Source: a virus (taxonomy: Duplodnaviria; Caudoviricetes). Taken from it: DNA of 64,000 bases. Below the pieces are notes generated by a model. It was not told the DNA's origin. It searched no databases and worked only from the letters and a program-made list of their open reading frames with translations. The stretch covers positions 96,001 through 160,000 of the IMG/VR virus record IMGVR_UViG_3300027917_000018; one strand, 5' to 3'. Both the position numbers and the translations under genes were made by a program. Below are positions 1,126-59,260 of the stretch, piece after piece. Within the stretch, counting starts at the first letter, position 1. The number at the start of each line of letters is the position of its first letter.

Positions 1126-2393
1126 ATCAGGTAGGCGACGACAAGACGTTTTACGTGGCGGCCCACACCAGCGGTGCCCGCTACGTCTGGAAGTACTGGG
1201 ACGGGGCCACGGCGGTCTCGGCGCAGAGCGCTGGCAGCAACGTCAAGCGCCTCAACCTGGGCGGCAATCCGGCGGAGGGTTTCACCGTGCCGGTGCGGTG
1301 CGAGGTCGTCGACCCGATCAAAGGCGAAACCGTTTACATCACGACGGGCCGCCTCCCGGTCAACAACCAGCCGACGCTTTACGGCAGCCCGACGGTCAGC
1401 AACAACGACGCGGCTTTCCCCTACCAGACCACCATCGCGATCCGGGCTTATGACTTGGAGGACGCCGGAATTCAGTTCCTGTGGTACTCCGGCAGCAACC
1501 CGGTTAGCGGGTTGGACACGACTTCGGCGAGCATCAGCGTTGAGGGCACCTACTACGGCACGCTGACGGGCCTGACCCGCCAAACCTACCTCAACCAGTT
1601 TAGCACGACGATTTACGGATCGGGCACGACGATGACCTGCAAGATCATCGACGGGGACGCCGGGACGCGCAGGCTGAATTTCGACTTCCGGGGCTACGAT
1701 CCGGCGGCCCCGTCCTTCTCGGTGGCCGCCACGCCCGACGCGCTGACCGCGCAAGCTACCGCCCTGACGACTCAGTTCATCGCGCCGGGCCAGGTGGCCA
1801 ACTTGAGCGCCTACGCCTATGATCCGGTGCCCGGCCAGTTGGTGTTTACGTGGGACCTGAACGGCACCAACGGCTGGAGCGCCCCGGACATTCCCTTCAT
1901 CTACGCCAACGACGGCACGTCGGTCGAGCAGGGCTACAAGAGCGAGTGGCAGCGGCAGTTGGAGGACGAGACGGTCGGTGGCCGAAAGCGGGTGATTGTT
2001 TGGGTGACCAATCCGACCACGAACAAAACCACCAGCACCTATTTCGACATCAACACGGCCATTAACCAGGCCCCGAGCTTCAGCAGCGTCGACATGTACG
2101 ACCCCATTAGCGGGGAGCAGATCACCAGCATCACCAAGGCGGCCTTGCCCACCAGGACCCTCGTCCGGTTTTCCGGCACGGCCAGCGATCCCAACTCGGA
2201 CGTGGTGACCTACAAGTGGGATTTCACGGTTCCGGTTTCGCCCAGCACCTACACACTTTATGGGCGCGATGCGTTCGTCGATGTCAGCGATTGGCCGTCC
2301 GGGGCCTACAGCACTTTGGGTATCGTCACGGCCTACGACCGGTTCGAGCAGGCCAGCAGCCCGGCCAACATTCCCAGTCTGACGGTGACTTAA
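1122..2393 (+). CDS. virion structural protein with Ig/PKD-like repeats
   Basis: Repeated A-Y-D-P..G-(Q/D)-(L/V)-(V/T)-(F/Y)-x-W-D elements (AYDPVPGQLVFTWDL, ASDPNSDVVTYKWDF). Confidence 0.6.
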   Translation: MNQVGDDKTFYVAAHTSGARYVWKYWDGATAVSAQSAGSNVKRLNLGGNPAEGFTVPVRCEVVDPIKGETVYITTGRLPVNNQPTLYGSPTVSNNDAAFPYQTTIAIRAYDLEDAGIQFLWYSGSNPVSGLDTTSASISVEGTYYGTLTGLTRQTYLNQFSTTIYGSGTTMTCKIIDGDAGTRRLNFDFRGYDPAAPSFSVAATPDALTAQATALTTQFIAPGQVANLSAYAYDPVPGQLVFTWDLNGTNGWSAPDIPFIYANDGTSVEQGYKSEWQRQLEDETVGGRKRVIVWVTNPTTNKTTSTYFDINTAINQAPSFSSVDMYDPISGEQITSITKAALPTRTLVRFSGTASDPNSDVVTYKWDFTVPVSPSTYTLYGRDAFVDVSDWPSGAYSTLGIVTAYDRFEQASSPANIPSLTVT

Positions 2394-2402
2394 AGATTAT
2401 TG

Positions 2403-2431
2403 TTGACGGCTAGTTGCTTCAGTGCCATATT
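2403..2431 (+). promoter_or_regulatory. sigma70-like promoter
   Basis: TTGACG-17 nt-CATATT, ending 10 nt before ATG 2441. Confidence 0.55.
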
Positions 2432-2440
2432 ACTCCCGCT

Positions 2441-3094
2441 ATGGCACTAAAACGTCTTAAAGTCAAAACGGTCCCGGCCTCTGCGAAGCCGGGAGAAATT
2501 CCTGAAATCTCCATCGAGGGCGACCTCGTTCGGCAGTACAACAAGGCCAGCGATGCGGCCAAGCAGGCGGAGGCCACGATGAAGGAGCTGAAGCCCGATG
2601 TCCTGGAAATTGGGCAGGGCGAGGTCCTCACGCGCTCCGTTGCCGACCCCATTCACCCGACCTTCACGGTCAAGCTGGTCGACGAGACTGGCGAGGCGCT
2701 GCGGGTCCAGTTCACCAAGCGCTATGGGCAGATTGCCGACGTGGACGCCTTGGAGCAGCTCTTCGAGGAAGCCGACGTGGACATCAACCAGCACGTTCAG
2801 GAGAAAGTGGTTGGTGTTTTCGATTCCAAGGTTTTCCTCGACGACAAGGGCGAGTTCAGCCGTAAGAAGTACGATGCCTACCTCAAGGCGGTACAGGCGG
2901 TCGCGGCCAAGTTCGGCGACAGCTGCCCGTTGTCCACCGACAAGCAGATCACGCCCAAGGATACGTGGCACGACAAGCGGTGGTCGGTCTTCACGAGCGT
3001 TGAATCCCAGGCCGAGCTGGTGCGTCTGATGCCCAATACGACTCAGATTGTGCCGGTCCGGGCCAAGAACGGCGACAAATTGCCTGCTGAGTAG
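2441..3094 (+). CDS. hypothetical protein
   Basis: 217-aa ORF; start placed at ATG 2441 just after the promoter. Confidence 0.7.
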   Translation: MALKRLKVKTVPASAKPGEIPEISIEGDLVRQYNKASDAAKQAEATMKELKPDVLEIGQGEVLTRSVADPIHPTFTVKLVDETGEALRVQFTKRYGQIADVDALEQLFEEADVDINQHVQEKVVGVFDSKVFLDDKGEFSRKKYDAYLKAVQAVAAKFGDSCPLSTDKQITPKDTWHDKRWSVFTSVESQAELVRLMPNTTQIVPVRAKNGDKLPAE

Positions 3095-3120
3095 TCCCTA
3101 AGTCCCAGCCCAACCCCAGG

Positions 3121-3151
3121 CGGGCCACCAGCAATGGTGGCCCGTTCTTTT
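3121..3151 (+). terminator. intrinsic terminator
   Basis: CGGGCCACCA-gcaa-TGGTGGCCCG perfect 10-bp stem followed by TTCTTTT. Confidence 0.75.
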
Positions 3152-3157
3152 ATGGTG

Positions 3158-3564: not shown

Positions 3565-4110
3565 ATGCAACCTGAATCAGTCAAAGAGAAAGCAGTCGAG
3601 GATTTCCGCCGTGGTGACCCCTTAAAGGACATTGCGATCCGTTACGGCGTATCCGAAGGATCGGTCAGTCTATGGGCCAAGGCGGCGGGCTTGCGCCGCA
3701 GCCGAGGTTGTCGGCCCAAGCTGCGGCCTAGCCGCACGGACTGGGAAATCGTCGAAGCCGTGCGCTCCGTGACCAACGGCCACCCGACGCTCAAGGAGAT
3801 TGGCGAGCAGTTCGGCGGCATGTCGCGGGCCGGGGTTCATCGCATCTACAAGAAATGGCGGCACTGGAAACCCAAGATGCCATTCCCGAAGGGCTCGGTG
3901 ATTCGGTACGGCAAGCACGACTACGAGGTCGTCGAGCCGGGACTTTTTGCCGGGCTGGTTCGTGGAATCGATACGGGCCGGACCCGCGAGGTTGAATGGG
4001 TGACCACAACCACACAGGCGGTCCTTCTCAAGGGCCGCCGCCGTTCAAAGACTCTTTCGTATGAGGAGCCTGTTTCAAACCATCGGAAGATGGCTCGACG
4101 GCTGGAATGA
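3565..4110 (+). CDS. double helix-turn-helix DNA-binding protein
   Basis: PLKDIAIRYGVSEGSVSLW and PTLKEIGEQFGGMSRAGVHRI HTH patterns. Confidence 0.7.
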   Translation: MQPESVKEKAVEDFRRGDPLKDIAIRYGVSEGSVSLWAKAAGLRRSRGCRPKLRPSRTDWEIVEAVRSVTNGHPTLKEIGEQFGGMSRAGVHRIYKKWRHWKPKMPFPKGSVIRYGKHDYEVVEPGLFAGLVRGIDTGRTREVEWVTTTTQAVLLKGRRRSKTLSYEEPVSNHRKMARRLE

Positions 4111-7588: not shown

Positions 7589-7879
7589 TTACAAATCTAT
7601 CAAGGCCGCTTCACGCTTGTTCTCTTGTAGAACGGCTTCGCCTTTGTCCCGGTCAGCATCCAGGAGCGTGAGCTGCTTTTCGTGGTACCACGCGGTAACG
7701 TGCCAGCCATCCGGCTCGTGGACCAGCAGGTTGTAATCGTGATGGTTGTTGCCGCCGTAGGCATCGCTGTAGCTGTGGACGACGATCGCCTCAAGCCCCG
7801 CTGGAAAGTGGGTCATTGCCGGGCCAAGATTGTCAGCGATCCTGACGCGGTGTCCCCGAAAGAATTTCTGCTTTTTCAT
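7589..7879 (-). CDS. hypothetical protein (SH3-like beta pattern)
   Basis: MKKQKFFRGHRVRI...WYHEKQLTLL; ATGA-coupled to the upstream gene. Confidence 0.6.
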   Translation of the reverse strand: MKKQKFFRGHRVRIADNLGPAMTHFPAGLEAIVVHSYSDAYGGNNHHDYNLLVHEPDGWHVTAWYHEKQLTLLDADRDKGEAVLQENKREAALIDL

Positions 7880-8394
7880 AATGCGACGTGCCCGTAGAAG
7901 ACCCGCTCGGCCCGGTAGTTGAAGTTGGAGCCGGTGACCGCCGCGATGAAGCTGACGCGGTTGTTCTTGTCCCAGCCGTCCAGTTCGCACTGGCCGTGCC
8001 ACATGCCGTGAGCCAGCAGGTAGCAGTTGCACCTGAACTTGGCCCATATCATCCGTATTCGGCTGGGCGGGCTCTTGCAGGATTCCACCAGCTCCACCTT
8101 GGCCGTCGGGCTCAAGGTGATGCTGAAAGCGTGGTCGCCGGTCAGGAACCGGTAATCGCCCTGGAGCAGGTCGCCGTAGCCGAAGGGCTTGCGATCCCCG
8201 CACCGGATGCACTCATCCCATTGGTTGCCCGTGATGTCCCGGTTGCCGTGATAGTCGCAGGGCGTGGCCACGCATTGGGTGACCCAGCGCTCCCTGGGGT
8301 GATAGGGATTGCCGATCACGTGCGGCCCGGCGTGGCCCTCGGCCATCGTGCATGGGCTGCCGGTATCGGGGTTGGTGCTGGGGCACGGCTTCAT
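7876..8394 (-). CDS. Cys/His-rich hypothetical protein
   Basis: ORF with several C/H clusters; coupled to its neighbour. Confidence 0.5.
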   Translation of the reverse strand: MKPCPSTNPDTGSPCTMAEGHAGPHVIGNPYHPRERWVTQCVATPCDYHGNRDITGNQWDECIRCGDRKPFGYGDLLQGDYRFLTGDHAFSITLSPTAKVELVESCKSPPSRIRMIWAKFRCNCYLLAHGMWHGQCELDGWDKNNRVSFIAAVTGSNFNYRAERVFYGHVAL

Positions 8395-10848: not shown

Positions 10849-10864
10849 GGATTAAAGAATTACA

Positions 10865-10893
10865 TTGACCAGTAAGTCATGCAAGCGTAATCT
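10865..10893 (+). promoter_or_regulatory. sigma70-like promoter in divergent intergenic region
   Basis: TTGACC-17 nt-TAATCT in an AT-rich gap between divergent gene runs. Confidence 0.45.
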
Positions 10894-11001
10894 GTTCGGG
10901 CATTTCTGCTAAATCGCACGCGCCGAGTTAAAAACGTTTGACGGGAAAGCGCTCACGGTTTACGCCAGCGATGCGTAGTCAGCCGGTTTATGCAACGAGC
11001 A

Positions 11002-11031
11002 AAATAACGGATCGCCAAATAACGGATCGCC
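11002..11031 (+). repeat. 15-bp tandem repeat x2 (AAATAACGGATCGCC)
   Basis: Two exact copies immediately before ATG 11033. Confidence 0.9.
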
Positions 11032-11032
11032 C

Positions 11033-11848
11033 ATGAAGGAACCAAGAAACGCTGCTGACCCCAAAGCGCTCCAGCGGTTTGTCGATAGGGTGCGCAGGCA
11101 AGCTCACCGCCAGTTCGGCGAGGACATCTTCGTTGATGTTTACGACAGCGCCGTGGCCCAGCGGCTTCAGCTGCTGGCAGTGCCCCACTACCATCTTTGC
11201 GAAACCAACGAGGAATTGCTGCGCGGAGCGGAGCTGGCGATTGCCAACTTGAGGCACGTCTGCGACTACACTGACGCGTGGCTGCGGCATATTGAGTTGG
11301 CGCACCGCGACGACCGCGAAATGCGCGAGCTGGAGGCGCTGGCCAAAAAGCTGTGGCCAGGATTCCCCGTTGCTTTTTCGACAAGCTACTCGGGTTTTGA
11401 CCGGCGCTCGGACGAGGTCATTCGGCGGCCCAAGCAGCTTGCAAGCTTGCGCACGGACAGTGATTCGCGTGCTGGGCTTCACAAAGAGCGCCTGGCCTAC
11501 CTTCATCTGGCGGCTAAGGAAATGGCCAAGCCTACGTGGCGGCGCGGCATCACGATCAAGGAAATCCTGGTCACGATGACGAGCTATTCCATGAGCGTGT
11601 ACGCCAGGACCAACATCACGCAGGAAGAGCTGCGGCGTGCGGCGGCGTACCGGGAAACGATGCGTGACGCCGACAAGGCGGTGGCTGAATGGGCAGCGGC
11701 GCACGGCCTTGAAAAAGAAGGTATTTCCCGTCGAGAGCTGACGCGAATGATTGAGTTCTTTGCTAAGCAGACGCTGAAGGCTTACGCCAAGAAGCGGCGA
11801 TCCGTAACACGGCGATCCGTAACACGGCGATCCGTAAAACGAGGATAG
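11033..11848 (+). CDS. hypothetical helical protein
   Basis: 271-aa ORF ending in RRSVT x3; no catalytic motif recognised. Confidence 0.65.
   Translation: MKEPRNAADPKALQRFVDRVRRQAHRQFGEDIFVDVYDSAVAQRLQLLAVPHYHLCETNEELLRGAELAIANLRHVCDYTDAWLRHIELAHRDDREMRELEALAKKLWPGFPVAFSTSYSGFDRRSDEVIRRPKQLASLRTDSDSRAGLHKERLAYLHLAAKEMAKPTWRRGITIKEILVTMTSYSMSVYARTNITQEELRRAAAYRETMRDADKAVAEWAAAHGLEKEGISRRELTRMIEFFAKQTLKAYAKKRRSVTRRSVTRRSVKRG
11795..11839 (+). repeat. 15-bp tandem repeat x3 (CGGCGATCCGTAACA)
   Basis: Three copies, the last with 1 mismatch; inverted relative to the 11002 array. Confidence 0.9.
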
Positions 11849-12130: not shown

Positions 12131-12231
12131 AATGAGCAAAGCAACGATTTGGGGAGCCGCCCAACGGGTGACGACTGGAGGCGCTGAGTGGCGTCTTCGG
12201 GCTCCCCTTAACATCCGATCCGTAATACCAC

Positions 12232-17189: not shown

Positions 17190-17559
17190 GGAGAAGGTCC
17201 GCACCGCCGAGGCCAGCCTGATTAGGTTGAGCCGGACCCGCCGTATTGGCTTTGTGATCTTCGGTTTTGGCGTGCCCATGCAGTTTCTTCAGGTGGCGGC
17301 GTGGGCGCTCTCCTTGAGCCTGGGGTTCGACTGGCTGGAGGTCATTCCGCTGGTGATCAACACGGTCATCCTGTTTTGGTGGGCGCTTCTAGCACGCAAC
17401 AACTACCTGGAGTGGAAAGAGGTTGAGGCGATCCGTAAGCTTTGGGCGCAGTTGAAGCAGCCCCTGCCGCACGGCTACTTGCTCCATGTTCAGGACCAGA
17501 TCGAGGCGTTTTGCGAGCGCGTGGCCAAACGGCCATCTCTGTGGACGGGCCGTTGTTAG
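17176..17559 (+). CDS. membrane protein (about 2 TM)
   Basis: Two long hydrophobic segments. Confidence 0.55.
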   Translation: MKTHEEKVRTAEASLIRLSRTRRIGFVIFGFGVPMQFLQVAAWALSLSLGFDWLEVIPLVINTVILFWWALLARNNYLEWKEVEAIRKLWAQLKQPLPHGYLLHVQDQIEAFCERVAKRPSLWTGRC

Positions 17560-18001: not shown

Positions 18002-18311
18002 TCAAGGACCATGCCTGTCGAGCGCTTGCCGAGCCGCTGACTGTGTGGGTGCCGCTCCGGCTTCCTCAAGGTCCGATCGGAACAGCTCTTTCCGCGCAGT
18101 TGATCGGGCTTGCCGAACAAGGCATACCCATTTCCACTGGCGGGCGCATCGCGCATCCGCTGTTCCAGTGTGACTTCGACTTAGAGCATAGGCGCGTGCT
18201 CGTGCCGAAATTACGGATCGGCGAAATAGTTAACGTTTCTGTGCGGTGGGGCATTGGTCGTGACGGCGAGCCCGAGGTTCTCGGCATGGACCTTTGCCGT
18301 TCTTCAAAGTC

Positions 18312-18773
18312 ATGAGAGCCACCGTGAGCATCAGCACTGCCGCTGAGGCCATCGACGAAATCAAGAGCTACAAGCGCATTCGTCGTTCCAACGACCCAAG
18401 CAAGAAGTTCCGAGACTGGCACTTCTCACTTGGGCACGGACTGCCTTCGATGGACATTGATTTTGTCGAGTACCGCCCGAACAGGGAAGGCGAGCTTATC
18501 CCGGTGGCGATGTACGAGCTGACCTGCTCTGAAGTGGTGCCGATACCGCCGCGCTACCTCGACCAGGTTTGGACCCGGCTATTTCACGACAAGCCCCAGG
18601 CGCGGGTGATGCGCTACATTGCCAGGATCATCAATGTGCCCGCGTTGATCGTGCTTCACACCGAGGACTTGACCGACATTTGGGTCTACAACGTGCTGAA
18701 GATGGGCCGCTGGTACCACACGACCCTGGAAGATTTAGGTGAGTGGATTGACGGCCTGAGAGTACGCGAATGA
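18312..18773 (+). CDS. hypothetical protein, possible PD-(D/E)xK-like fold
   Basis: MDIDFVEY...AMYELT pattern; weak. Confidence 0.4.
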   Translation: MRATVSISTAAEAIDEIKSYKRIRRSNDPSKKFRDWHFSLGHGLPSMDIDFVEYRPNREGELIPVAMYELTCSEVVPIPPRYLDQVWTRLFHDKPQARVMRYIARIINVPALIVLHTEDLTDIWVYNVLKMGRWYHTTLEDLGEWIDGLRVRE

Positions 18774-19549
18774 TCGAACATGTGGTCCAGTACAGTGGTG
18801 GGGCCTGCTCGTTTTGGGCGGCCAAACGGGTGATTGACCGTTACGGATCGGACACGGTGGTCCTGCTCTTCGCCGACACGAAGATGGAGGACGAGGACCT
18901 CTACCGGTTCCTGGACGAGACCAGCCAGTTCCTGCGCGTGCCCATCACCAAAATCGAGGACGGGCGGACCCCGTGGCAGGTGTTCTTCGACGAGCGTTTC
19001 CTGGGCAATACCCGCGTCGATCCGTGCTCCAAGATTCTCAAGCGGGAGCTGCTTTGGAAGTGGATGACTGAGCACGCCCCGAAGGCCACGGTCCACGTGG
19101 GTCTGGATTGGACCGAGGACCATCGCCTGGAGCGCCTGCGCACTTATCGGCCTGAATTCAAGATTGAAGCACCGATGATGTGGGACCCGCTGGTGGACAA
19201 GCCAGACATGCTCATCGAGCTGAAGAAGCTTGGGTTCGAGCTGCCTCGGCTCTACAAGCTCGGGTTCGCCCACAATAACTGCGGCGGCTTTTGCATCAAG
19301 TCAGGCCAGGCGCAGTTTCGTTTACTGCTCACCGAAATGCCCGAGCGCTACGCGTTCCACGAGGAACAGGAGCGCAAGCTGCGGGCCTTCCTGGACAAGG
19401 ACGTGGCCGTGCTGCGGGACCGGCGCGGTGGAAAAACCAGGCCGATGACGCTTGAAGAATTTCGTAAACGCCTTCAAGCTGACGGTGATGAGCCCTCTGA
19501 CTGGTATGCAAGGGACGAATTTGGAGGTTGTGGTTGCGCCATAGACTGA
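18770..19549 (+). CDS. PAPS-reductase-fold (adenine nucleotide alpha-hydrolase-like) protein with Cys cluster
   Basis: VVQYSGG..S PP-loop, LLFADT..EDEDLYRF, CSKILK, HNNCGGFCIK, C-terminal GGCGC. Confidence 0.75.
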   Translation: MIEHVVQYSGGACSFWAAKRVIDRYGSDTVVLLFADTKMEDEDLYRFLDETSQFLRVPITKIEDGRTPWQVFFDERFLGNTRVDPCSKILKRELLWKWMTEHAPKATVHVGLDWTEDHRLERLRTYRPEFKIEAPMMWDPLVDKPDMLIELKKLGFELPRLYKLGFAHNNCGGFCIKSGQAQFRLLLTEMPERYAFHEEQERKLRAFLDKDVAVLRDRRGGKTRPMTLEEFRKRLQADGDEPSDWYARDEFGGCGCAID

Positions 19550-19723
19550 TGAGACTTGCACGAGGCATCCAGTTCACCGTTGGCCAATCTTTGGCGGAGA
19601 CAGTGGAGCCGAGGTCAGGCGGATGGTGGGTGTGCATCGTAGAGGATCATGCGTACGACGTGCGCATTCACGAATTCGCCATCGCTGAGGCGCTTGCCAG
19701 GGAGGCGTCACGATCAAGAGACC

Positions 19724-20113
19724 ATGAAGAAGGAATCAAATCCACCGCCGGTACTGCCGCGCCCTAATCCGCCGCCCGCGCCGCCCGCTTCGGACGGATA
19801 CCGCAAGCTGGGCAGCCTCTTCGTCCCGGAATCGGTGACGGAGACGCAACCGATCGTCAACTGGTTCGCGACCGAGATGGAGCGCCAACTGGCCGCCGCC
19901 AAGCACAAGGACAGTCCGGCCCACTGGCGGTCGACCGACGTTTTCAGTCTCAAGAAGCGGCTTTGGGACTGTCGAGCCAACCTTAATGCCGCCACCAACG
20001 AAAACCCAACCCAGGTCCTCCAGGAGGCCGCCGCGATGGCCAACGTGCTGTTGATGATCGCGGACTGGTACGAGAGCCGACTGGTGATCCTGGACATCGA
20101 CGGAACAGAATAG
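19724..20113 (+). CDS. degenerate MazG-like (all-alpha NTP-PPase) protein
   Basis: FATEMERQL..K..W..L..RL..EAAAMANVLLMIAD pattern, but the acidic catalytic residues are not conserved. Confidence 0.4.
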   Translation: MKKESNPPPVLPRPNPPPAPPASDGYRKLGSLFVPESVTETQPIVNWFATEMERQLAAAKHKDSPAHWRSTDVFSLKKRLWDCRANLNAATNENPTQVLQEAAAMANVLLMIADWYESRLVILDIDGTE

Positions 20114-20133
20114 CCTAACCTAGAGGATTACCT

Positions 20134-21298: not shown

Positions 21299-21513
21299 GC
21301 CAGGTATTCTGGAAATCCTCGATGGGTGAGTGGCACTGTTACGGATCGGACGGTTGGAGCCTGTGCGGCTTCTTTCAGCTCAAAGCGCAGCGCAAAGGGC
21401 CGCAGAAGGAGCCAAAGTTCCAGGAAGCCTTTGACCGCATTGAAGCCTGCCAGCGCTGCTGGAACGAATACCAGCGAATAAAGGCTTCCACCAATGGCGG
21501 ATCACGTTCTTGA
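21295..21513 (+). CDS. small Cys/His protein
   Basis: WHC..SLCG..CQRC. Confidence 0.5.
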   Translation: MSQVFWKSSMGEWHCYGSDGWSLCGFFQLKAQRKGPQKEPKFQEAFDRIEACQRCWNEYQRIKASTNGGSRS

Positions 21514-38517: not shown

Positions 38518-40625
38518 GCGCGGCCCGTAACATCCTGGATGCTGAGACGCCGCGCTTTGTTCTCAAGGCGCTAGGCCGCCGCACGCTCGGCGTTTCGACC
38601 AAGCTGCTGCGCTCCTATCTGCGCCAGGAGGGCTTTCCGGTCGTTCAGCTTTACCGGCGCAGCAACAAGTGGCAGGACGCGATTGAAATGACAATCGTGG
38701 CCAGCGACCCCACGCTCCGCACCGACGCCGTGCTCTACGAGGTTATGGCCAGGGTCGAGAATTGGCTTGAGCAGAACTACCCCAAACTCGCGCCTCTCTT
38801 GTCCGTGAACGGCTGGGTTGCGCTTTGGCGTGACCAGAACAGCTTTGAGATTTCGATTACCAACCAGTACCGAGAGCAGACAGAAGCTCTGGAAAGCCCG
38901 GCCTCCGTACTGCACCAGATCGCGACCAACACGGTCATGGCCAAGCACGCGGACTTTCGGCAAGTCGCGGACGACGTGTGGCTCCTGGACGCGGGGAACT
39001 TTCAGGCCGAGGCTCGGGTCAAGCAGTCCGCGCAGGGCCGCCAGTGGGACCTTGCGATCTTTACGGTGACACACGGACCGTACCGGCGTACGCCCCAGGC
39101 AAGCTGGAACAATCTTACGGATCGCCAGTTCGCGATGGTGATGACGAACGTTTTTGGGGTGGCCGAGGCGGTGGACCCGCGCTCGCTTCTGCGAAAGCTG
39201 TACGACCCATCCGACCCGGTCGTTTCGGCCCTCGTCAAGATAGGCTTTCAGAAGGTGCCCGGCGGCCCGGAGAAGCGGCATCGGTTTGAGCTGCGGCGCG
39301 GCAATCGCACGTACGATCTTTGGTGGTACTGGGACGCGGCTCCGGGCGGCGGCAGGGAGCGTCGGTGGGACTTCGACGTGTGGGAAGATAATCCCGGTGG
39401 CGGCAAAGAACTGGTGGGCAACCACAATTCCATAGGCGACGGGCTTATTGCGAGGCTGCTCGGCAGCGGCTACGGCCTTTTGCCAGAATCCAGGAAACTC
39501 ATCGAGCAGGAGACTGAATCGCCGCGAGGCTTCCTTAACCGGCTCAGGCGGGAGCGCCTGTACTTCGGACAGCGGTTCGAGCGCGTGCCCTTTGGTGCCC
39601 GATGGGGCATGAACGCTCACGTTCGTAGGCTTTCCGACGATGGCGAGCCTGAAGTATTTGTTCAGCCGTCGGCCAGCTCCAGGCCGGTGCCGCTAGACCT
39701 GCAAGCATCTTTGGAAGTGGCTCAGCTGAGCCCGACGGGGTTTGAGTGGGGCTACGGCGGGAGCGGCCCGCATCAGCTTGCCCTGGCCCTTCTTTTGGAC
39801 GTGACCAGCGATCCCCAGCGGGCGTACCACGCACACCACGCCTTTACGGCAAGCGTCATTGCGCACTTGCCGCGCAAGGAATGGACGCTGACCTCCAGGA
39901 GGATTCTGAGCTGGCTGTCTGCCTGGGAAAACACGGGCGTCAAGGAAGCCGTCAGTCCCAGGGAGCTTTTGGTGCCCAGGGCCGCGCACGCGGTCGGGCA
40001 TTGGCTGGCCAGTTTGAAGTTCCACAAGGTCGGCGATGCCTGGCAAAGGTTTTGGCACGGGCATGCGCAAATGGACGTGGAGCCCCAAGGCCAGGACAAG
40101 TGGAAAGTGACGGTTTGGCGCTTGCCGAGCCCAACGGCTTTCGGCTTGCGCCTGCGCCGCAAGCTGCGCGCAACCAGCACCGTGCCGCTCGGGGCTGTGC
40201 CCCAGGTTGTGCAAAAGTGGGTCAAGGAGCTGAGTGTCGAGCAGGACCCTGAGCTTGCCGAGGCCGCCGAGACACCGCGATCCGTGCTTAAGGCATTGCC
40301 CAAGTTCGACGAGGACACGGAGGTCACGCTGCGTTGGCTGCGCCATGTGGTCGGCCAGCACATCGTTCGGCAGGTTGACATCGTGAGCGAAAGGCCAGAT
40401 TTCCAGCATACCGACGCCCGCCTTTACGTGATCATTGAGGTCAGCCAGGGCTACCAACGACAGCCGCTCCTCCGGCGCTACTGGGTCGATTTTGCCAGCC
40501 GGGGTGTGCTGGCCCAGGCGCTGCGCCAATGGGCCAACCTGCAAGGGGCTAAGCTCCGCGTGGACGGCCAGGACGCTGGCAAGGTCGCATACCGTAATCC
40601 CGTTTTGGCAAAACTTGCCGCATGA
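38514..40625 (+). CDS. leader-bearing six-module polyprotein including a DUF6166-like domain
   Basis: MSAARNILDAETPR; linkers at 38883, 39165, 39510, 39945, 40260; FEWGYGGSGPHQLALALL. Confidence 0.8.
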   Translation: MSAARNILDAETPRFVLKALGRRTLGVSTKLLRSYLRQEGFPVVQLYRRSNKWQDAIEMTIVASDPTLRTDAVLYEVMARVENWLEQNYPKLAPLLSVNGWVALWRDQNSFEISITNQYREQTEALESPASVLHQIATNTVMAKHADFRQVADDVWLLDAGNFQAEARVKQSAQGRQWDLAIFTVTHGPYRRTPQASWNNLTDRQFAMVMTNVFGVAEAVDPRSLLRKLYDPSDPVVSALVKIGFQKVPGGPEKRHRFELRRGNRTYDLWWYWDAAPGGGRERRWDFDVWEDNPGGGKELVGNHNSIGDGLIARLLGSGYGLLPESRKLIEQETESPRGFLNRLRRERLYFGQRFERVPFGARWGMNAHVRRLSDDGEPEVFVQPSASSRPVPLDLQASLEVAQLSPTGFEWGYGGSGPHQLALALLLDVTSDPQRAYHAHHAFTASVIAHLPRKEWTLTSRRILSWLSAWENTGVKEAVSPRELLVPRAAHAVGHWLASLKFHKVGDAWQRFWHGHAQMDVEPQGQDKWKVTVWRLPSPTAFGLRLRRKLRATSTVPLGAVPQVVQKWVKELSVEQDPELAEAAETPRSVLKALPKFDEDTEVTLRWLRHVVGQHIVRQVDIVSERPDFQHTDARLYVIIEVSQGYQRQPLLRRYWVDFASRGVLAQALRQWANLQGAKLRVDGQDAGKVAYRNPVLAKLAA

Positions 40626-41437
40626 GCCGCGCCTTACAGCTTATTCTTGCCGAGGCCCGCCGCAAGCCGGAGAGCCCGAAGTCCATAATGAAGGCGATCG
40701 GCAACCCGGACATCGCAAGCCTGCTGGAGTACGCGCCCGAGGACTTTCGTAGAGCCTATTACGCCAAGCAGACCGCCGAGTGGGACCCGGATTTTGCCGC
40801 TGAGGCCGATTGGAGCCCGTCGCCCGGCGATCATTACGAGGATGAGGAGACCGGCGAGGAGCGTGTGGAGTGGTGGCGCACGGCCTATTATCCGGTTTAC
40901 CGGACCGAAGACGGCAAGATTTACGAGGAAGTCCATTCGGTGGACGGGGACGGCAACCACGAGTACGAGGTCGAGGCCGAGGTTGGCACCGACGAATGGC
41001 GGCGGCAGCAAAGGGATTGGTACCAAGCGCCGCAAAGGCTGTGGAAGGACTACTGGGAATACGTGGCCGAGACCGGGGACGACGCTTTGGGCGAAATCTT
41101 CGTGCCCCGTGAGAAGACCACGCACAAGTGGGTCGCCGGATTTACGCAAGAGCCCGATGGCAGGCTCAAGTTTTGGGGTGCCCGCCCAATTGGGCGCGAG
41201 CAGAGCCACCCGCCGATCCGTAATCTTGACGAGGTCCCGCAGCACGTGAAGGACTATCTCCTCGTTGATCAGGATGGGTACAGCGAGGCTACACTGGATG
41301 ACCTGAAGCGGGAGAACGGCAAACAGGACAAGCAAGGCCGGTGGCAGGTTTGGTTCACCACCGAGCAAGAGAAGGAGCCTGAGAACGTCGTGGATTTCAT
41401 CAAGCGCAAGGCCCGCGAGCAGTTGGAGAGGCAATGA
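40622..41437 (+). CDS. leader-variant acidic protein (MSRALQLILAEARRKPESPK)
   Basis: Leader variant; W/Y/E-rich. Confidence 0.7.
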   Translation: MSRALQLILAEARRKPESPKSIMKAIGNPDIASLLEYAPEDFRRAYYAKQTAEWDPDFAAEADWSPSPGDHYEDEETGEERVEWWRTAYYPVYRTEDGKIYEEVHSVDGDGNHEYEVEAEVGTDEWRRQQRDWYQAPQRLWKDYWEYVAETGDDALGEIFVPREKTTHKWVAGFTQEPDGRLKFWGARPIGREQSHPPIRNLDEVPQHVKDYLLVDQDGYSEATLDDLKRENGKQDKQGRWQVWFTTEQEKEPENVVDFIKRKAREQLERQ

Positions 41438-41715
41438 GCAGAGCACGCCAGATCATCGAGGCCGCCGAGACACCGCGATCCGTAATTTCGGCGATCCGTA
41501 AAACCAGGTTTGAGCTTGGCATCCAGGACATCATGCGCGACGCCAAAGAGCTGGAGGCTAGGCTGGAGAAATCCGGGGTCATGAACCTCATGGGCTGGTT
41601 TGACGATTCCGCCGTGGCGCAGGCGATCATGCAACTGGCGATCGAGCGGCGAGGCGCTCCCGGCACGAAGCGGGCGCTTTCAGCCATCAAACGGCACGGA
41701 CACTCAGTTTTGTGA
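41434..41715 (+). CDS. leader-bearing protein (MSRARQIIEAAETPR)
   Basis: Leader motif, coupled. Confidence 0.7.
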   Translation: MSRARQIIEAAETPRSVISAIRKTRFELGIQDIMRDAKELEARLEKSGVMNLMGWFDDSAVAQAIMQLAIERRGAPGTKRALSAIKRHGHSVL

Positions 41716-51436: not shown

Positions 51437-51823
51437 ATGAATACGACAAAAGCACTGAAATGGGCGGTTTTTTGCGTGTTGACTCTTCCCGTGCTCCTAT
51501 TCGCGCAGGACGAGACCCCACTCGCCGAGCTGCCTAAAAGCACGCAGGAGTTTTGGGTCCTGGGCATCGCTGTTGTTTCCCCGCTGATCGTTCAGGGGAT
51601 CAAGTGGGCGGTTCCCAAGATTCCGAAGCTTCTGCTACCAAGCGTCACACCCTTCATCGGCATGGCTTTGGGCTATGGGCTGAATGCCCTGGGCACGGCT
51701 GACCTGGGATGGGTGGATGCTGCGCAAGCGGGCGCTCTGGCCGTCTTCGTTCGCGAGGTCGTCAACCAAGCGGTGAAGTCTCGGCAGGCGGCTGACACAC
51801 CGGCCCAGCCTCCTTCTGGCTAG
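51437..51823 (+). CDS. holin-like membrane protein
   Basis: Three to four hydrophobic segments, charged C-tail. Confidence 0.5.
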   Translation: MNTTKALKWAVFCVLTLPVLLFAQDETPLAELPKSTQEFWVLGIAVVSPLIVQGIKWAVPKIPKLLLPSVTPFIGMALGYGLNALGTADLGWVDAAQAGALAVFVREVVNQAVKSRQAADTPAQPPSG

Positions 51824-52853
51824 GGATTTCAACTGAACCTTCATCCTCCCCTGCGGGTGGCTCATCCGCAGGGGATTTTCGTTTACGGTCTGTTCGGTTC
51901 AATTCATCGGCGAGGCTGTACTGCCTGATCTTGTTGTAAAGCGTTTGTCGCCCGATCCGCAGCCGCTGCGCTGCGTGCTTGATGTTGCCGTGGCAGCCTT
52001 GGATGGCCTCGATGATAAGCCTGCGCTCCGCCAGCTCAATCGGCCCCAGTGTATGGCCCTGTTCCGCCTTTTCCTGCGCCGTTTTGTCGAGGGCAGCCTG
52101 GGCGACCGGAGGGCTGAATCCGTCGGGCGGTAGGGAGTGTCGGTAGCCCAAAGCCAGCACGCGTTGTATTTCGTTCTCCAACTGCCGGACGTTGCCAGGC
52201 CATTCGTAAGCCAGTAGAGCTTCCTTGGCTTCCTTACCGAGGTAGACGGGTTCGGTAACAGCCTGTTCCTTAGCGTACCAATTGAGAAACGTTTCGGCCA
52301 GGGGCAGAATGTCATTTCTTCGATTGCGCAGCCGGGGCAGAAAAAGCGTGACGGCACCGATGCGGTAGTAAAGGTCAGGACGTAAACGTTTTTGTTCGAG
52401 CAGCATTTCTGGCAGGTTGCTCACGGCGCAAATCAGCCGAAAGTTAATGGCGTCCTCCTTGGTGCTCCCGACGCGTCGGACTTTCCTTTCCTGAAGGACC
52501 CGCAGCAGCTTTGACTGTGCTCCCAGCGGCATTTCGCTCAGCTCGTCCAGGAAGAGGGTGCCGCCATCCGCTGCCCCGATCAGGCCCGTGCGGTCGTTGC
52601 TGGCCCCAGTGTAGGCACCACGGGCCGCGCCGAACAGCTCGCTCTCGACGAGGTCTTTGGGCAATGCCGCGCAGTTGACACAGATCATCGGCTGTTTGCG
52701 CCGAGGGCTGTTCTCATGGATATGGCGTGCAACGACTTCCTTGCCCGTTCCGGTCTCGCCGCAGAGCAGGATGGGAATGCCGCTGGCAGCAATCTGGTTG
52801 CAGGTGGCTACCAGAGCTTGCATTGCTGAACTGGCGAATACGGGCTTGTACAT
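51762..52853 (-). CDS. sigma54-dependent enhancer-binding protein (AAA+ plus Fis HTH, no N-terminal sensor)
   Basis: GETGTGKE, ESELFG, GAYTGA, GGTLFLDE, RPDLYYR, WPGNVRQL, HAAQRLRIGRQTLYNKI. Confidence 0.92.
   Translation of the reverse strand: MYKPVFASSAMQALVATCNQIAASGIPILLCGETGTGKEVVARHIHENSPRRKQPMICVNCAALPKDLVESELFGAARGAYTGASNDRTGLIGAADGGTLFLDELSEMPLGAQSKLLRVLQERKVRRVGSTKEDAINFRLICAVSNLPEMLLEQKRLRPDLYYRIGAVTLFLPRLRNRRNDILPLAETFLNWYAKEQAVTEPVYLGKEAKEALLAYEWPGNVRQLENEIQRVLALGYRHSLPPDGFSPPVAQAALDKTAQEKAEQGHTLGPIELAERRLIIEAIQGCHGNIKHAAQRLRIGRQTLYNKIRQYSLADELNRTDRKRKSPADEPPAGEDEGSVEIPSQKEAGPVCQPPAETSPLG
51847..51879 (+). terminator. intrinsic terminator
   Basis: TCCCCTGCGG / CCGCAGGGGA stem followed by TTTT. 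Confidence 0.65.
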
Positions 52854-53313: not shown

Positions 53314-54061
53314 CTTCGAGCTGGGTGCCGTCTTCCGTCGGGCTGATGTAGATTTCGCCGTAGGAATGAGCAGCTGCCGTGAGCCGCTCGCCCGCCTCTT
53401 CATCGTCCGTGAAATCGCCATCCCAAAAGCCAGCGCCGTGGCCGTTGCGGGTTAGCCAGAAGTCGTGCCCGGCCCGTGACGGATCGCCTTCGATGTCCCG
53501 CCAGTTTTTCTTCCAGAAGTCTTCGCATTCAGCCCGGAGCGTCTCTCGGGCCGCGTCGGTGAAGTCCCCGGTGTCGTAATCACGGTCCAGTGGGTGGCCG
53601 TGGCCTTCAGGGTCAACGGCGTCGTTGTTGCTGCTCCAGATGGCTGTCTCCAAGTATTGCTCGAAGAATTCTTCGGGCATTTCGGGCACGTGCGGGGCGT
53701 GCTTTTTGAGAAACTCACGGGGCGTTTCGGCCTCTACGACATCGCTGATTTCCCCGACGCCATGTCCGGTTGAGCTGACGAGAAAGATTTTGTTTACAGA
53801 AGGGCCTATAAGCCTTGGGTAGCCAAGCGGCTTGCCTAAGAGATTGTGGGCAATGCTCTTGGCGTCCTTGTAATCTCGTGTCGACCCATTGTCCGGCGTT
53901 CCACGGCCCCAATACCAGTGGGGTATGCCGTAGGTCCAGTAATAGGGAGTGCCTTCAGCCACACCGACCAGGAAAAACCGTGGATTGCGAAACTTGTGCT
54001 TGAGCAAGTCCCTGGGCGATTCCCCGGCCAATCCGTCGATGATAGCCCGTGCCCGGCTCAT
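53306..54061 (-). CDS. leader-bearing two-module protein; C-module with AGHDFWLTRNGHGAGFWD
   Basis: True start 54061 (MSRARAIIDGLAGESPR); internal EAETPREFL at 53734. Confidence 0.75.
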   Translation of the reverse strand: MSRARAIIDGLAGESPRDLLKHKFRNPRFFLVGVAEGTPYYWTYGIPHWYWGRGTPDNGSTRDYKDAKSIAHNLLGKPLGYPRLIGPSVNKIFLVSSTGHGVGEISDVVEAETPREFLKKHAPHVPEMPEEFFEQYLETAIWSSNNDAVDPEGHGHPLDRDYDTGDFTDAARETLRAECEDFWKKNWRDIEGDPSRAGHDFWLTRNGHGAGFWDGDFTDDEEAGERLTAAAHSYGEIYISPTEDGTQLEVM

Positions 54062-55068
54062 AGGTCGCGCTCCCGCTTTACGTCGTGGGCGTAGTAGTCC
54101 AGCTTGAAGCCCATCTTTTGCGCCAGCCGCCACGGCGCTTCTTCGCGGGTCTCTGGCGGAAGGTAGCCCCTGTGGCGCAGCCAGTCGAAGGCGCGGGTCA
54201 GGTAGTGGTCGCCGTAGCCTCCGGCCATCGGGAGCGTGTGAACCAACTCGCCGTTTACATAAATGTCCGCCGTGTTGTAGGTGTTGCCATAGGTTCGGCG
54301 AAACCACCGCCTGCCGATGACGGCGACTTCGCGCAGGACAAAGTGCTTTTTCAGAAGGTCGCGGGCCGACACCGCCTCCTGTTGGGGCCTGGGCGGCAGT
54401 AGCGGCGCAAAGATGTTTACGAACTGCTCCTTCGGGAGAAGCCGCGACATCATGCTCATCAGGTCATAAATGTCGCCCAGCGGGATTGGCTTTTCGCCGG
54501 ATATGTCGTACCAGACCTTGTCCTTTTTCTCCCAAAAAGAGCCGCCGGATGGCAGATCGATGCGCCGCCCGGTCCATTCAGTCTTGCGCTTGAAAAACTC
54601 ACGAGGATTCACGGCCTCGACGACTTTGGGCCTGGTCTGCTCACGCGGCCAGAGCACGATGCGCCATTCACGAGGCCCGGCTACGCCGTCCACCCTACCG
54701 CTTCGCTGGCCTTTGCTGGCGTTGGGATACATTTTTGAGGTGTACCTGTGCATTTCGTCGGCGATGACCTGCTCTTCCTCATCCGTGAAATCCAGCAAGT
54801 CGGGATGGTTGGGATACCGCTGGAAGGTCTGCTCGAAGCCTAAAGCGTCTTCCACATCGTTGAGCAAACCGTACTCGCCGTCTTGTGGGAACACCGAGCC
54901 GTCGTCCCCAATGCCGACGGGCACGTATTCGGTCTGGTCATCGTCCATCATCGGCGGCTTACGGATCGCCAGATAGTAGCCTTCTCCGCCAGGTGGCAGC
55001 AGACGCGGCAGCCGCTTGATAATGGATCGCGGGCTCTCAGCCTCAATGATGTCGCGTGCCCGGCTCAT
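54058..55068 (-). CDS. leader-bearing three-module polyprotein
   Basis: MSRARDIIEAESPR; EAVNPREFF (54618), EAVSARDLL (54378). Confidence 0.75.
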   Translation of the reverse strand: MSRARDIIEAESPRSIIKRLPRLLPPGGEGYYLAIRKPPMMDDDQTEYVPVGIGDDGSVFPQDGEYGLLNDVEDALGFEQTFQRYPNHPDLLDFTDEEEQVIADEMHRYTSKMYPNASKGQRSGRVDGVAGPREWRIVLWPREQTRPKVVEAVNPREFFKRKTEWTGRRIDLPSGGSFWEKKDKVWYDISGEKPIPLGDIYDLMSMMSRLLPKEQFVNIFAPLLPPRPQQEAVSARDLLKKHFVLREVAVIGRRWFRRTYGNTYNTADIYVNGELVHTLPMAGGYGDHYLTRAFDWLRHRGYLPPETREEAPWRLAQKMGFKLDYYAHDVKRERDL

Positions 55069-56001: not shown

Positions 56002-56003
56002 AC

Positions 56004-57009: not shown

Positions 57010-57024
57010 TCTGTTCTATGCTTT

Positions 57025-57756: not shown

Positions 57757-58076
57757 TCGCGACGCTGAGCAGTTTTACTCCGGTCAGCGATTCCACGGAC
57801 AGCACCTATTACTACTCGATTTCAAATTCCGAGCACACTGCTCCCGAGTTCCTGCCGGGTTTCTATTTGCTGCGTTACGTGGACAGGTATGCGTCGACGG
57901 ACGAAATCTATAAGCTGATCCATGCGGCAGAAATGCGCTGCCGTGATTTGAGCGGGCTTTATCGCACGCCGCGTAAACAATTTCCCCTTCGAGCGTTTCA
58001 GGCTCCCCGAGTGATTCGCCAGCCGTGCTGGTCCGCCAGGCGGTGGCGCTCCGTCACGTAATCCGTTCTGTAAGGC

Positions 58077-58604
58077 ATGAGCACGCAGCCGCCAATCGTG
58101 GCGGTCATCGGCGCGCCGACGCTCGTGCCGCGCCTGGTGACCGCGTTGAAAGAGAAGGGCTACCACGACCCCATCGTGCCTGACGACACTGAGTTGCAGC
58201 ACGAGCCGTCGATGCGCAAGTTCCTGAGCTACGCCAGTCCCGACGTTTTGGTGATCGCGCAGGACCGTGTTAAGGCCGAGTCCGCGAGCATGGTTCAGGC
58301 ACTGCTGACCGGCATCTTCGCGTTCCAGTGTTCAATGGGACTGGCCAAGGTCGTTTTGCTGACCGGCGTATGGCCGGACCCTGAATTCTGGACGCTCGTC
58401 AACATCGGCCAGGTCATGATGAAGGAGGGCAAAATCACGCTCGGCTGGTACCTGAAGCACCCCAAAAGCCCGGCCATGCTCGACTGGGCGGAGGAGTCGG
58501 TTCTAGCAATGCGTGAGCTTTTACAGGCGCAAGAAGCGAACCAGAAAAGCGCCCAAGGCCAGGACCAAAAAGAGCAAGTGCGCAACGAAGTGGTGTCGCA
58601 ATGA
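58077..58604 (+). CDS. degenerate Rossmann-like (epimerase/reductase N-terminal-like) protein
   Basis: VAVIGA..L..KGY...EL......FL....PDVLVIA layout; weak. Confidence 0.35.
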   Translation: MSTQPPIVAVIGAPTLVPRLVTALKEKGYHDPIVPDDTELQHEPSMRKFLSYASPDVLVIAQDRVKAESASMVQALLTGIFAFQCSMGLAKVVLLTGVWPDPEFWTLVNIGQVMMKEGKITLGWYLKHPKSPAMLDWAEESVLAMRELLQAQEANQKSAQGQDQKEQVRNEVVSQ

Positions 58605-59007
58605 GCGGGCGGTCAACAATACGGGCCGCCTCCTGCGGCATTGCTGGAAATGCCGATCACGAATGCTCAAGGAGCGACACCCCGAGACCTACGCCCTTAA
58701 CGCGATGCGCCAACGCGCCAAGCAGCGCGGCATGCCGTTTACCATTACGCTCAGCGAGTGGCGGGAATTTTGTCGAAAGACCGGTTACCTCGAAAACAAA
58801 GGCAAGGAACCCGATTCCTACACGGTTGACCGGATCGACGACAGCAAGGGCTACCACATCTGGAACATCCGAATTTTGAGCCATGCCGAAAACAGCAGAG
58901 ACCAATACCGGAACTTCGAGCCGGGCGAAGAAAGAGAATTCGCCGACGAGGAGGACTTCAGCCAGGACGCCCCGGCGTACCAGCCAGAGCCAGGCGAGCC
59001 TTTTTAA
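58513..59007 (+). CDS. HNH-like (His-Me finger) endonuclease
   Basis: F.ITL..W..F..G....TVDRIDDSKGYHIWNIRIL..EN; N-terminal Cys pairs; start uncertain. Confidence 0.7.
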   Translation: MSFYRRKKRTRKAPKARTKKSKCATKWCRNERAVNNTGRLLRHCWKCRSRMLKERHPETYALNAMRQRAKQRGMPFTITLSEWREFCRKTGYLENKGKEPDSYTVDRIDDSKGYHIWNIRILSHAENSRDQYRNFEPGEEREFADEEDFSQDAPAYQPEPGEPF

Positions 59008-59008
59008 G

Positions 59009-59260
59009 GTGCCAGAAAGCTTACGGATCGGCCAAAGCGAGGCTCAGGTCCTGGTCTTCGTTTACCAAAATCCAGGGCTGGACCTGGAGGAATGGCCGGA
59101 CCATGTGCGCCGCCTTCGTGCCGTGGAGAAGCTGCGCAAGGAGCGACGTATCACGCGGAAGTACTTCCCGACCCGTTATTACTTGAGCCGGTCAGGTTAC
59201 CCTGTGGCAAGTTGGATTGTACGGTTAAATGGCCTCCAGCAACACAAGTACGCGATCTAA
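59009..59260 (+). CDS. small winged-helix-like protein
   Basis: GTG 59009 follows TAAG; basic helical pattern. Confidence 0.4.
   Translation: MPESLRIGQSEAQVLVFVYQNPGLDLEEWPDHVRRLRAVEKLRKERRITRKYFPTRYYLSRSGYPVASWIVRLNGLQQHKYAI

Follow-up and report, generated by a model that had tools for sequence, protein, structure and literature searches.

A dispersed, asymmetric DNA word of a T4-like jumbo phage as a candidate recognition site of a lineage-specific protein

Stoperators of Cluster A mycobacteriophages are located in short intergenic spaces, follow the direction of transcription and are inactive when reversed, and the operator/stoperator readers described for this cluster include L5 gp71, Bxb1 gp69 and the TipsytheTRex repressor (PMC9283540). 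The word TTACGGATCG analyzed here is dispersed over the 203-kb genome of a T4-like jumbo phage from sediment (202,975 bp; hereafter G000) and resembles these sites in several respects. Both are short and asymmetric (about 13 bp in Cluster A, 10-12 bp here), have more than 20 copies over the phage genome (here 29 exact copies and 70 members of a wider family), occur at promoter/start regions and elsewhere, are lineage-specific and turn over between relatives. Unlike Cluster A sites, the word has an orientation that is independent of gene direction, both in G000 and at the start codons of two related contigs, L344 and L345. As for location, 8 of the 23 family copies in these two contigs directly precede a called start codon, at a distance of 1-3 nt, and 59 of the 70 in G000 are intragenic (genes called by our own rough gene finder). 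In addition, the carrier is a T4-like jumbo phage, in which no HTH immunity repressor or sign of temperate life was found.

Other repeated words offer partial parallels. Two sets of mycobacteriophage repeats, the start-associated sequences of Cluster K and the 17-bp repeats of Cluster O, are reportedly intergenic and either fixed in orientation or palindromic. The word shares with them a conserved position a few bases before the starts of some genes, but it is asymmetric, used in both orientations and mostly intragenic in G000. The DUS of Neisseria and the USS of Pasteurellaceae are traits of bacterial genomes that are read by the competence machinery and spread fairly evenly. As in these systems (9-12 bp), the word is hyper-abundant, present on both strands and in all reading frames, and made by substitutions; in contrast with them, it is tied to one phage sub-lineage, clumped, arrayed and found at start codons. 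Chi sites (5-8 nt, polar and host-specific) are likewise short over-represented intragenic words with about one copy per few kb, whereas the word is longer, shows no detected polarity and forms arrays. Finally, in P1 incC/incA around repA, in ParR-parC and in TubR-tubC, the gene for the binding protein has one or two arrays of direct repeats next to it or on both sides. Direct-repeat arrays at the gene of a candidate binding protein are also found here, but together with dozens of dispersed single copies, unlike in iterons and type II/III centromeres.

An earlier note on the window (that is, the whole 64-kb stretch of G000 that was analyzed) had listed 16 exact copies of the word, all of which proved real. 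With a seventeenth that had been overlooked (54959-54968, + strand), the window holds 17 copies, 8 on the + and 9 on the - strand, whereas dinucleotide shuffles gave an expectation of 0.05 and a maximum of 1; thus, the claimed over-representation holds. The near-matches at 11005 and 11020 were also real, each having A at position 2, then CC. In the complete genome, TTACGGATCG was the commonest 10-mer, with 29 copies against 0.35 expected under a third-order Markov model (0.35-1 under all models used). Within coding sequence, 12 sense and 13 antisense copies were observed. The codon-preserving shuffles and the dicodon null that the note had proposed as checks left this excess in place: 0.28 sense and 0.50 antisense copies were expected from synonymous-codon shuffles, and 0.64 and 0.33 (maximum 4) from a dicodon (codon-Markov) model fitted to the genes themselves. 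As had been noticed, coding copies lie in different frames; in fact, they occupy all five frame/orientation classes that create no in-frame TAA. The uncommon codons pointed out at that time were confirmed (TTA, 2% of Leu; GTA, 6% of Val; CGA, 9% of Arg), and GGA (13% of Gly) is a further minor codon in the copies. In conserved genes, the site falls in ungapped alignment and has arisen by substitutions. A peptide or codon artefact is ruled out by the use of all stop-free frames and by the codon and dicodon nulls, and there is good support for a signal that selection maintains at the DNA level and that does not simply follow from codon or peptide usage. Import with foreign DNA was also rejected, since lineage-specific genes were no denser in copies than shared ones (p = 0.24). 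A literature search on the word returned PCR primers only.

The exact word belongs to a family with the consensus TWWCGG(AT/GC)CG plus S, which has 70 copies in G000 where about 4 are expected. Its core 8-mer, ACGGATCG, has 73 copies, or one per 2.8 kb. Positions 7-8 are AT in 49 copies and GC in 21, with AC or GT in 3; such a preference would be expected under direct read-out of a GRYC core. The nine other members in the window carry T/A changes at positions 2-3 and/or GC for AT at positions 7-8. No sequence information was found outside positions 1-12, which argues against a promoter with a fixed partner box. Restriction-site avoidance was considered as a context and rejected, since GATC is not avoided in G000 (frequency ratio 0.92).

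The family copies of G000 comprise 23 sense, 36 antisense and 11 intergenic ones, without strand bias, and word orientation is unrelated to gene direction. Enrichment near gene ends is modest, with 24 of 49 copies at no more than 100 bp compared with 31.5% expected, and two copies (11020 and 12216) are adjacent to start codons. Strand and spacing analysis, another check suggested earlier, revealed that gaps between family members are clumped (CV 1.41; null range 0.79-1.23), so even spacing was rejected. Tandem arrays have periods of 11, 15, 16 and 19 bp; a scan for sigma70 promoters and terminators around them found nothing over chance. The copies in the window and the candidate reader genes are listed in Table 1.

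Table 1. Word copies, arrays and candidate reader genes in the window
Feature	Positions	Strand	Context
Gene g126, orphan of 271 aa, candidate reader of the word or its partner	11033-11848	+	Bracketed by inverted arrays
PspF-like sigma54 activator, Fis-type HTH, alternative candidate reader	51762-52853	-	G000-specific
Small protein, weak N-terminal HTH_28-type match, weaker alternative candidate reader	3565-4110	+	
Left array, 2 tandem variant copies (A at position 2, then CC), 15-bp period	11005-11031	+	Within divergent intergenic region 10849-11032; ends 3 nt before ATG of ORF 11033
Right array, 3 exact copies, 15-bp period	11798-11837	-	Last codons of g126; encodes basic five-residue repeat; 15-45 nt before ATG of next gene (11852)
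Exact copy	12216-12225	-	6 nt before ATG of g128 (12232), opposite to gene orientation
Pair of exact copies, 16 bp apart	41476-41501	-	Two different frames of gene 41434-41715
Exact copy	1613-1622	+	Intragenic
Exact copy	17429-17438	-	Intragenic, antisense
Exact copy	18211-18220	+	310-bp intergenic region, 91 nt before gene 18312
Exact copy	18841-18850	+	71 nt into gene 18770-19549
Exact copy	21339-21348	+	17 nt into gene 21322-21513
Exact copy	23147-23156	+	Intragenic
Exact copy	36573-36582	-	Convergent intergenic region
Exact copy	39115-39124	+	Intragenic
Exact copy	41214-41223	-	Intragenic, antisense
Exact copy	54959-54968	+	Antisense in gene 54058-55068
Exact copy	59021-59030	+	12 nt into gene 59009-59260
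Other family members, 10 bp each (starts)	3635(-), 15652(-), 20908(+), 26971(-), 28435(+), 36313(-), 37798(-), 38521(-), 55211(+)		

The 2-copy and 3-copy arrays face each other across g126, beside a divergent intergenic region that is less GC-rich, and they are identical in contigs of two studies. No Pfam family, recognisable DNA-binding domain or HTH was identified in g126. Its AlphaFold2 model, built from 3 sequences, was weak (mean pLDDT 58.6); Foldseek gave no match at E <= 0.001, VIA-align found helical-hairpin matches only (up to Z 6), and there was no usable match in the ESM Atlas. Searches of 1.8 billion representatives and of 5.8 billion proteins revealed two homologs only, encoded on contigs L344 and L345 of sample 3300037424. 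Both are filled with the word: 6 copies in 5.4 kb (0.01 expected) and 10 copies in 17 kb (0.03 expected), and TTACGGATCG is the top 10-mer of L345. On the other hand, 16 capsid relatives (five at least 93% complete) had 0-1 copies and lacked g126; these relatives are too distant for a site-by-site test. L345 is syntenic with the window from 7.9 to 15.9 kb, where proteins are 28-72% identical but the word keeps every letter. L344 and L345 have 79% nucleotide identity; three of five site positions are exactly kept between them, and the others were gained or lost. The placement of copies directly before start codons departs strongly from chance in L344 and L345 (binomial, 6e-8 and 9e-6), and five of the eight such copies are in the orientation of the gene and three opposite to it.

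It should be noted that the co-occurrence of the word and g126 is confounded, because G000, L344 and L345 form one sub-lineage in which other restricted genes, such as g141, also co-occur. A sigma54 activator and a DNA methylase are likewise specific to G000, and G000 has no counterpart of a winged-helix gene that adjoins the g126 homologs of L344 and L345 and encodes 72 aa in the latter. A 3.2-kb contig with a g141 homolog (L346) had no word copy and is too short to be informative. Megablast against phage and plasmid collections found no close relatives. Viral contigs were scanned with g126 and its profile, with g133 and with two more proteins of the window, and no further member of the sub-lineage emerged. 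When viral, genome and metagenome collections were scanned for tandem copies, most matches were tandem repeats of unrelated kinds, and one identical fragment of the G000 phage was recovered; as these scans had no control word, nothing is concluded from the number of matches. Bacterial genomes with tandem copies had 10-57 copies in 4-6.7 Mb, mostly in arrays. Three DNA sequencing runs contain the stretch, in the form of contigs only, and no RNA run is listed as containing it.

Since the only two other contigs known to encode the orphan are both filled with the word, its most likely role is that of a binding site for a phage protein. We therefore consider the word to be an operator-like recognition site of a lineage-specific DNA-binding protein, possibly g126, with a probability of about 0.5. 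Three features of the sequences favor protein binding, namely the arrays bracketing one gene, the start-abutting copies in either orientation and the co-occurrence with the orphan. The bracketed position would probably make g126 the reader. The recognition site, asymmetric and 11-12 bp in length, would then belong to a protein of one sub-lineage of T4-like jumbo phages. Copies before start codons, and those of the divergent control region at about 11 kb, may act as operators, where the protein would sit on the promoter/start region of genes almost without leader. Tandem arrays could give cooperative binding, and single intragenic copies might provide extra binding points serving as roadblocks, sink or scaffold. 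The intragenic majority in G000 and its modest gene-end enrichment are odd for a plain operator and count against one, as do, for g126 as the reader, its weak model and the lack of a recognisable DNA-binding domain.

The earlier note gave a broad list of functions for a selected DNA signal. Of these, the evidence favors a protein-binding site, against which five other readings have to be weighed. A recombination signal, either a Chi-like site that restrains a host or phage exonuclease or a junction where a site-specific enzyme (possibly g126) exchanges, cuts or joins gene cassettes, appears rather unlikely. The density of the ACGGATCG core is within the range of Chi in E. coli, and equal use of the strands is what a circularly permuted genome would need. 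However, 10-12 bp exceeds known Chi sites, neither tandem arrays nor a fixed distance of 1-3 nt to ATG is predicted, and the order of strands along the genome lends none to a Chi-like role (in runs tests, exact copies had z = -0.37 and family members z = -2.27), although a permuted genome would hide polarity. For a cassette junction, many copies in L344 and L345 lie exactly at gene junctions, the g126 unit carries the same hexamer on both outer sides, and gene order varies, g141 adjoining g126 in L344 and L345 and lying 8 kb away in G000. In addition, a 63-aa gene specific to L345 begins at a degenerate copy, and the corresponding place in L344 carries an inverted one. The cassette case, however, comprises a single example, and no recombinase or nuclease domain was found in g126. 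A replication, partition or packaging element is quite improbable. It would rest on arrays of iteron or centromere type near 11 kb that an initiator or adaptor recognizes (g126, or a partner of the phage's TubZ-like tubulin), the single copies being secondary. The clustered direct repeats (2 + 3 copies, 15-bp period) flanking g126 beside the less GC-rich divergent region do recall P1 repA with its flanking iterons and the ParR/TubR centromeres. Yet there are about 60 dispersed single copies rather than one or two loci, start-codon placement in the relatives is not an iteron or centromere feature, and searches revealed no domain of the initiator, ParB, ParR or TubR type. Evenly spaced replication priming is unsupported, since clumped rather than regular spacing makes priming sites unlikely; a primase-type reading thus failed the spacing test.

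A low probability is also given to a target of a sequence-specific modification or nicking enzyme, for example the G000-specific N6/N4 methylase, with the GATC/GGCC core being modified. The permitted cores are classical methylation tetramers, and, of the three genomes compared, G000 alone has an orphan N6_N4 methylase. The window also encodes NUDIX, cytidylyltransferase-like, PAPS-reductase-like and phosphoribosyltransferase domains, and its nucleotide-sugar genes could take part as well. Nevertheless, modification targets are not normally 60-fold enriched, placed at start codons or arrayed, and GATC itself occurs about as often as expected. Enhancer (UAS) sites of the phage PspF-like sigma54 activator, read by its Fis-type HTH, are very unlikely. 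Sites 1-3 nt from an ATG cannot be upstream enhancers, which are situated some 80-200 bp ahead of -24/-12 promoters; no convincing -24/-12 promoter was found in G000 (best score 17.2 of 19.7), and association of the word with sigma54-like sites was at chance level (15.32 vs 15.15), so that this reading failed the promoter-association test. The activator was also not seen on L344 or L345, both of which are fragments. These points outweigh, in our estimate, the confinement of both activator and word to G000 among 17 related records and the general behavior of enhancers, which are orientation-free, act at a distance and often comprise 2-3 adjacent sites. A link through sigma54 activators of array-bearing bacteria was sought and none was found, their proteins being about 40% identical to that of the phage, as any such protein would be. 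Finally, a start-associated signal that acts in the RNA, for ribosome binding or processing, as with the Cluster K sequences, is extremely improbable. The start-abutting copies in L344 and L345 would fit it, and in gene orientation the GGA of the word lies 5-6 nt before the start, like a weak Shine-Dalgarno. It is contradicted by the use of both orientations: three of the eight start copies, and that at 12216 in G000, are reversed, so the RNA would read differently, and antisense and intergenic copies outnumber sense ones in G000.

Thus, recognition by a phage protein is the reading that we prefer. We would suggest only tentatively, as a rather doubtful extension, that g126 is the founder of a new sequence-specific DNA-binding family that forms, with the word, a genome-wide operator/roadblock network in T4-like jumbo phages. 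If so, this would be stoperator-like control of independent origin, orientation-free and largely written into coding sequence. The word provides a concrete handle for such work, being exact across relatives whose proteins have diverged widely and having a distinct position class at start codons, and the orphan gene bracketed by its arrays has turned up only together with the word. A binding result could give a function to a protein family without known fold, and could reveal how the large orphan early gene block of a T4-like jumbo phage is controlled.

The phage genome that holds the window (G000) is one contig of 202,975 bp with 59.8% G+C, which carries a T4-type capsid gene, and the window corresponds to its bases 96,001-160,000; the sequencing runs holding it are marine sediment metagenomes. 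The 10-mer TTACGGATCG (hereafter the word) is the most frequent 10-mer of this genome, with 29 copies compared with 0.35 expected under a third-order Markov model. The window contains 17 copies, whereas dinucleotide shuffles gave 0.05; all 16 positions listed in the earlier note were real, and one more copy, unlisted there, was found at 54959. In coding sequences, 25 copies were observed versus 0.8 expected under synonymous-codon shuffling and 1.0 under a codon-Markov model, even though the latter was trained on the word copies themselves. Thus, the excess survived a dicodon-type null, under which its disappearance would, according to the same note, have refuted the finding. The copies fill all five frame/orientation classes without an in-frame TAA, translate into no fewer than five distinct short peptides and include minor codons (TTA, GTA and CGA, which represent 2% of Leu, 6% of Val and 9% of Arg codons, respectively), so that the previously reported use of different frames and uncommon codons was confirmed. 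The copies at 41476 and 41492 even occupy two different reading frames within one gene. In three genes with alignable distant homologs, the word site lay in ungapped alignment at variable residues and therefore arose by substitutions, not by insertion. TTACGGATCG is a real, strongly selected and lineage-specific DNA word; its earlier interpretation as a selected DNA signal is borne out by the excess under codon nulls and by the use of all stop-free frames.

One-mismatch variants were allowed at positions 2 (A, n=10) and 3 (T, n=10). The family comprising the word and its tolerated variants, T-W-W-CGG-(AT/GC)-CG, has 70 copies in G000 compared with about 4 expected. Positions 7-8 are AT in 49 copies and GC in 21, with AC or GT nearly absent (n=3), and at position 11, 61 of the 70 copies have C or G and one has A; no information content was found beyond position 12. 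The motif is asymmetric except for a small GRYC core. Family copies occur on both strands (33 on plus and 37 on minus) and, relative to the genes as called by us, 23 run in the sense direction, 36 are antisense and 11 lie between genes. Strand runs showed no departure from chance among exact copies (z = -0.37), and across the family there was only weak clustering (z = -2.27). Family spacing was clumped, with a CV (1.41) above the null range (0.79-1.23); therefore, the sites are not evenly spaced, and a reading as regularly placed primase sites was not supported. Tandem groups have copy starts 11, 15, 16, 19 and 35 bp apart. A modest enrichment was observed at gene ends (24 of 49 copies within 100 bp vs 31.5% expected), and copy density was no higher in lineage-specific than in shared genes (p = 0.24).

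We found only 0-1 copies of the word in each of 16 long contigs selected by a major capsid protein with 72-83% identity (capsid relatives). Three of these, fetched whole, have proteins mostly 30-60% identical to those of G000 and are without most genes of window 3-59 kb. A second, commoner word, N-GT-WW-AC-N, is enriched in G000 and its relatives G001, G002 and G006 as differing 'dialects'. Since the relatives have this other word but 0-1 copies of TTACGGATCG, the latter is an extra trait of the G000 sub-lineage. The second-word dialect is C-GTTTAC-G in G000 (96 copies vs 12 expected, mostly read as Val-Tyr), T-GTTTAC-A in G001 and T-GTATAC-A in G002 and G006 (about 80 vs 6); neither G000 nor G001 contains GTATAC. 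The scarcity of GTAC in G001 (8 vs 475 expected) suggests that the dialect shifts around restriction avoidance.

The most striking locus of the word is window 11005-11837, where two arrays bracket the orphan gene g126 (see table); they are identical, without indels, in contigs of two different studies. The hexamer AACGAG flanks this unit (window 10990-11845) on both outer sides: on the left it precedes the array by 5 nt, and on the right it follows the array immediately. This may be a coincidence or a target-site duplication. Elsewhere in the window, contigs of both sequencing runs connect 19609 to 20750, which may represent a variant without the genes g141 and g142 or an assembly-graph link, and both runs contain a diverged second allele of a 120-bp patch at 22558-22674.

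Arrays of the word around g126 and candidate readers of the word
Feature	Position	Strand	Evidence	Remark
Left array			two copies, last ends 3 nt 5' of g126 ATG	edge of divergent intergenic region
g126 orphan gene	11033-11848	+		bracketed by the two arrays; candidate reader
Right array	up to 11837		three copies, opposite orientation to left array	fills last codons of g126
PspF-like sigma54 activator	51762-52853	-	AAA+ sigma54-interaction domain (5.8e-62), lid, Fis-type HTH, GAYTGA loop	candidate reader
Small HTH protein	3565-4110			candidate reader
Orphan N6/N4-type DNA methylase	G000:C1:29166-29912, outside window	+	PF01555, 3.5e-18	candidate reader
72-aa winged-helix protein	L344 1195-1419, L345 6031-6249		HTH_24 3.7e-7, MarR 1.8e-5	candidate reader

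No Pfam family and no IMG/VR homolog were found for g126. An exhaustive phmmer search of 1.8 billion representatives yielded P0003 (27% identity) as its sole homolog, and a profile search of 5.8 billion proteins added P0004 (31%); both are on contigs of one metagenome (L344 and L345). The profile did not match any of the 16 capsid relatives, though it found G000's own copy. L344 has 6 exact word copies in 5.4 kb (0.01 expected) and L345 has 10 plus 7 variants in 17 kb (0.03 expected), the word being the commonest 10-mer in L345 too. L345 shows synteny with window 7.9-15.9 kb, matching its leftward genes, its divergent region and its rightward genes at protein identities of 28-72%, and the word is unchanged in every letter despite strong DNA divergence. 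Between L344 and L345, which are 79% identical where aligned, three of five word positions are exactly kept and one is gained or lost on each side. One kept site is inside the homolog of g128; at that point the peptide of G000 is almost identical and is written in its common codons, with no site, and a copy lies instead 6 nt upstream of g128. Such turnover is what binding sites are expected to show. L345 also has an extra 63-aa gene (7700-7990) with a one-mismatch copy before its start, and the same junction of L344 (2530-2550) has an exact copy in opposite orientation, the single hint of cassette exchange at the word.

On the basis of gene calls taken from the database, 5 of the 17 family copies of L345 (binomial 6e-8) and 3 of the 6 of L344 (9e-6) are followed by a start codon at a distance of 1-3 nt, five of these eight in the gene's orientation and three opposite; two analogous copies are present in G000 (11020 and 12216). 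Because both orientations are used, the pattern argues against a signal acting in RNA and against a promoter box with a direction, and for a protein that would occupy the DNA where these genes begin. If promoter boxes adjoin the starts, a protein occupying such sites, 1-3 nt from the ATG, would cover the promoter. The most likely reading, with a probability of about 0.5, is that the word is bound by a protein and is used like an operator where genes start.

A signal for recombination or cassette exchange is unlikely. Both uptake sequences and Chi share with this word the appearance of one word in all frames, but neither predicts tandem arrays or start-codon placement. Replication or partition elements such as iterons and centromeres would account for arrays but not for dispersed copies, and such a role is less probable still, as is, equally, a modification or nicking target, for which the orphan methylase would be a candidate reader. 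The nearest solved relatives of this enzyme are cytosine-N4 methylases, and it was not found in three relatives compared. Sigma54 enhancer sites, which the PspF-like activator could read, rank lower again, since no convincing -24/-12 promoters were found in G000 and the word showed no association with such matches; therefore, the targets of the activator may be host promoters. It lacks a receiver domain and, among 17 related phage records, occurs in G000 alone; a lone receiver-domain protein is likewise G000-specific. An RNA-level element is very improbable given start-adjacent copies in both orientations.

With regard to readers of the putative binding site, g126 is bracketed by word arrays and accompanies the word on 3 of 3 contigs vs 0 of 16 capsid relatives, a co-occurrence confounded by descent because g141, another gene of the sub-lineage, has the same pattern. 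The AlphaFold2 model of g126 is of low confidence (mean pLDDT of 58.6, with 73-92 in the central part) and matched no known fold. The winged-helix gene is directly upstream of, and overlaps, the g126 homolog in both L344 and L345; it was not detectable in G000. The same decamer was also observed in a Planctomycetota MAG (L139, L172, L102, L127 and L190; 57 copies in 6.5 Mb), in each of some 14 tandem arrays with unit lengths of 29-43 bp, among which those with 35-bp units cannot be coding repeats, and an array of a Myxococcales MAG (L103) has a 14-mer in common with them; no link between these arrays and the phage could be established.

Among known systems, the operator/stoperator network of Cluster A mycobacteriophages comes closest. 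In that network a monomeric repressor binds asymmetric 13-mers, over twenty in number, located at promoters and in intergenic spaces, and site orientation follows transcription and is needed for function (PMC9283540). Here, in contrast, sites occur in either orientation and in G000 mostly within genes; therefore, the word falls outside that class, although it may work in a similar way.
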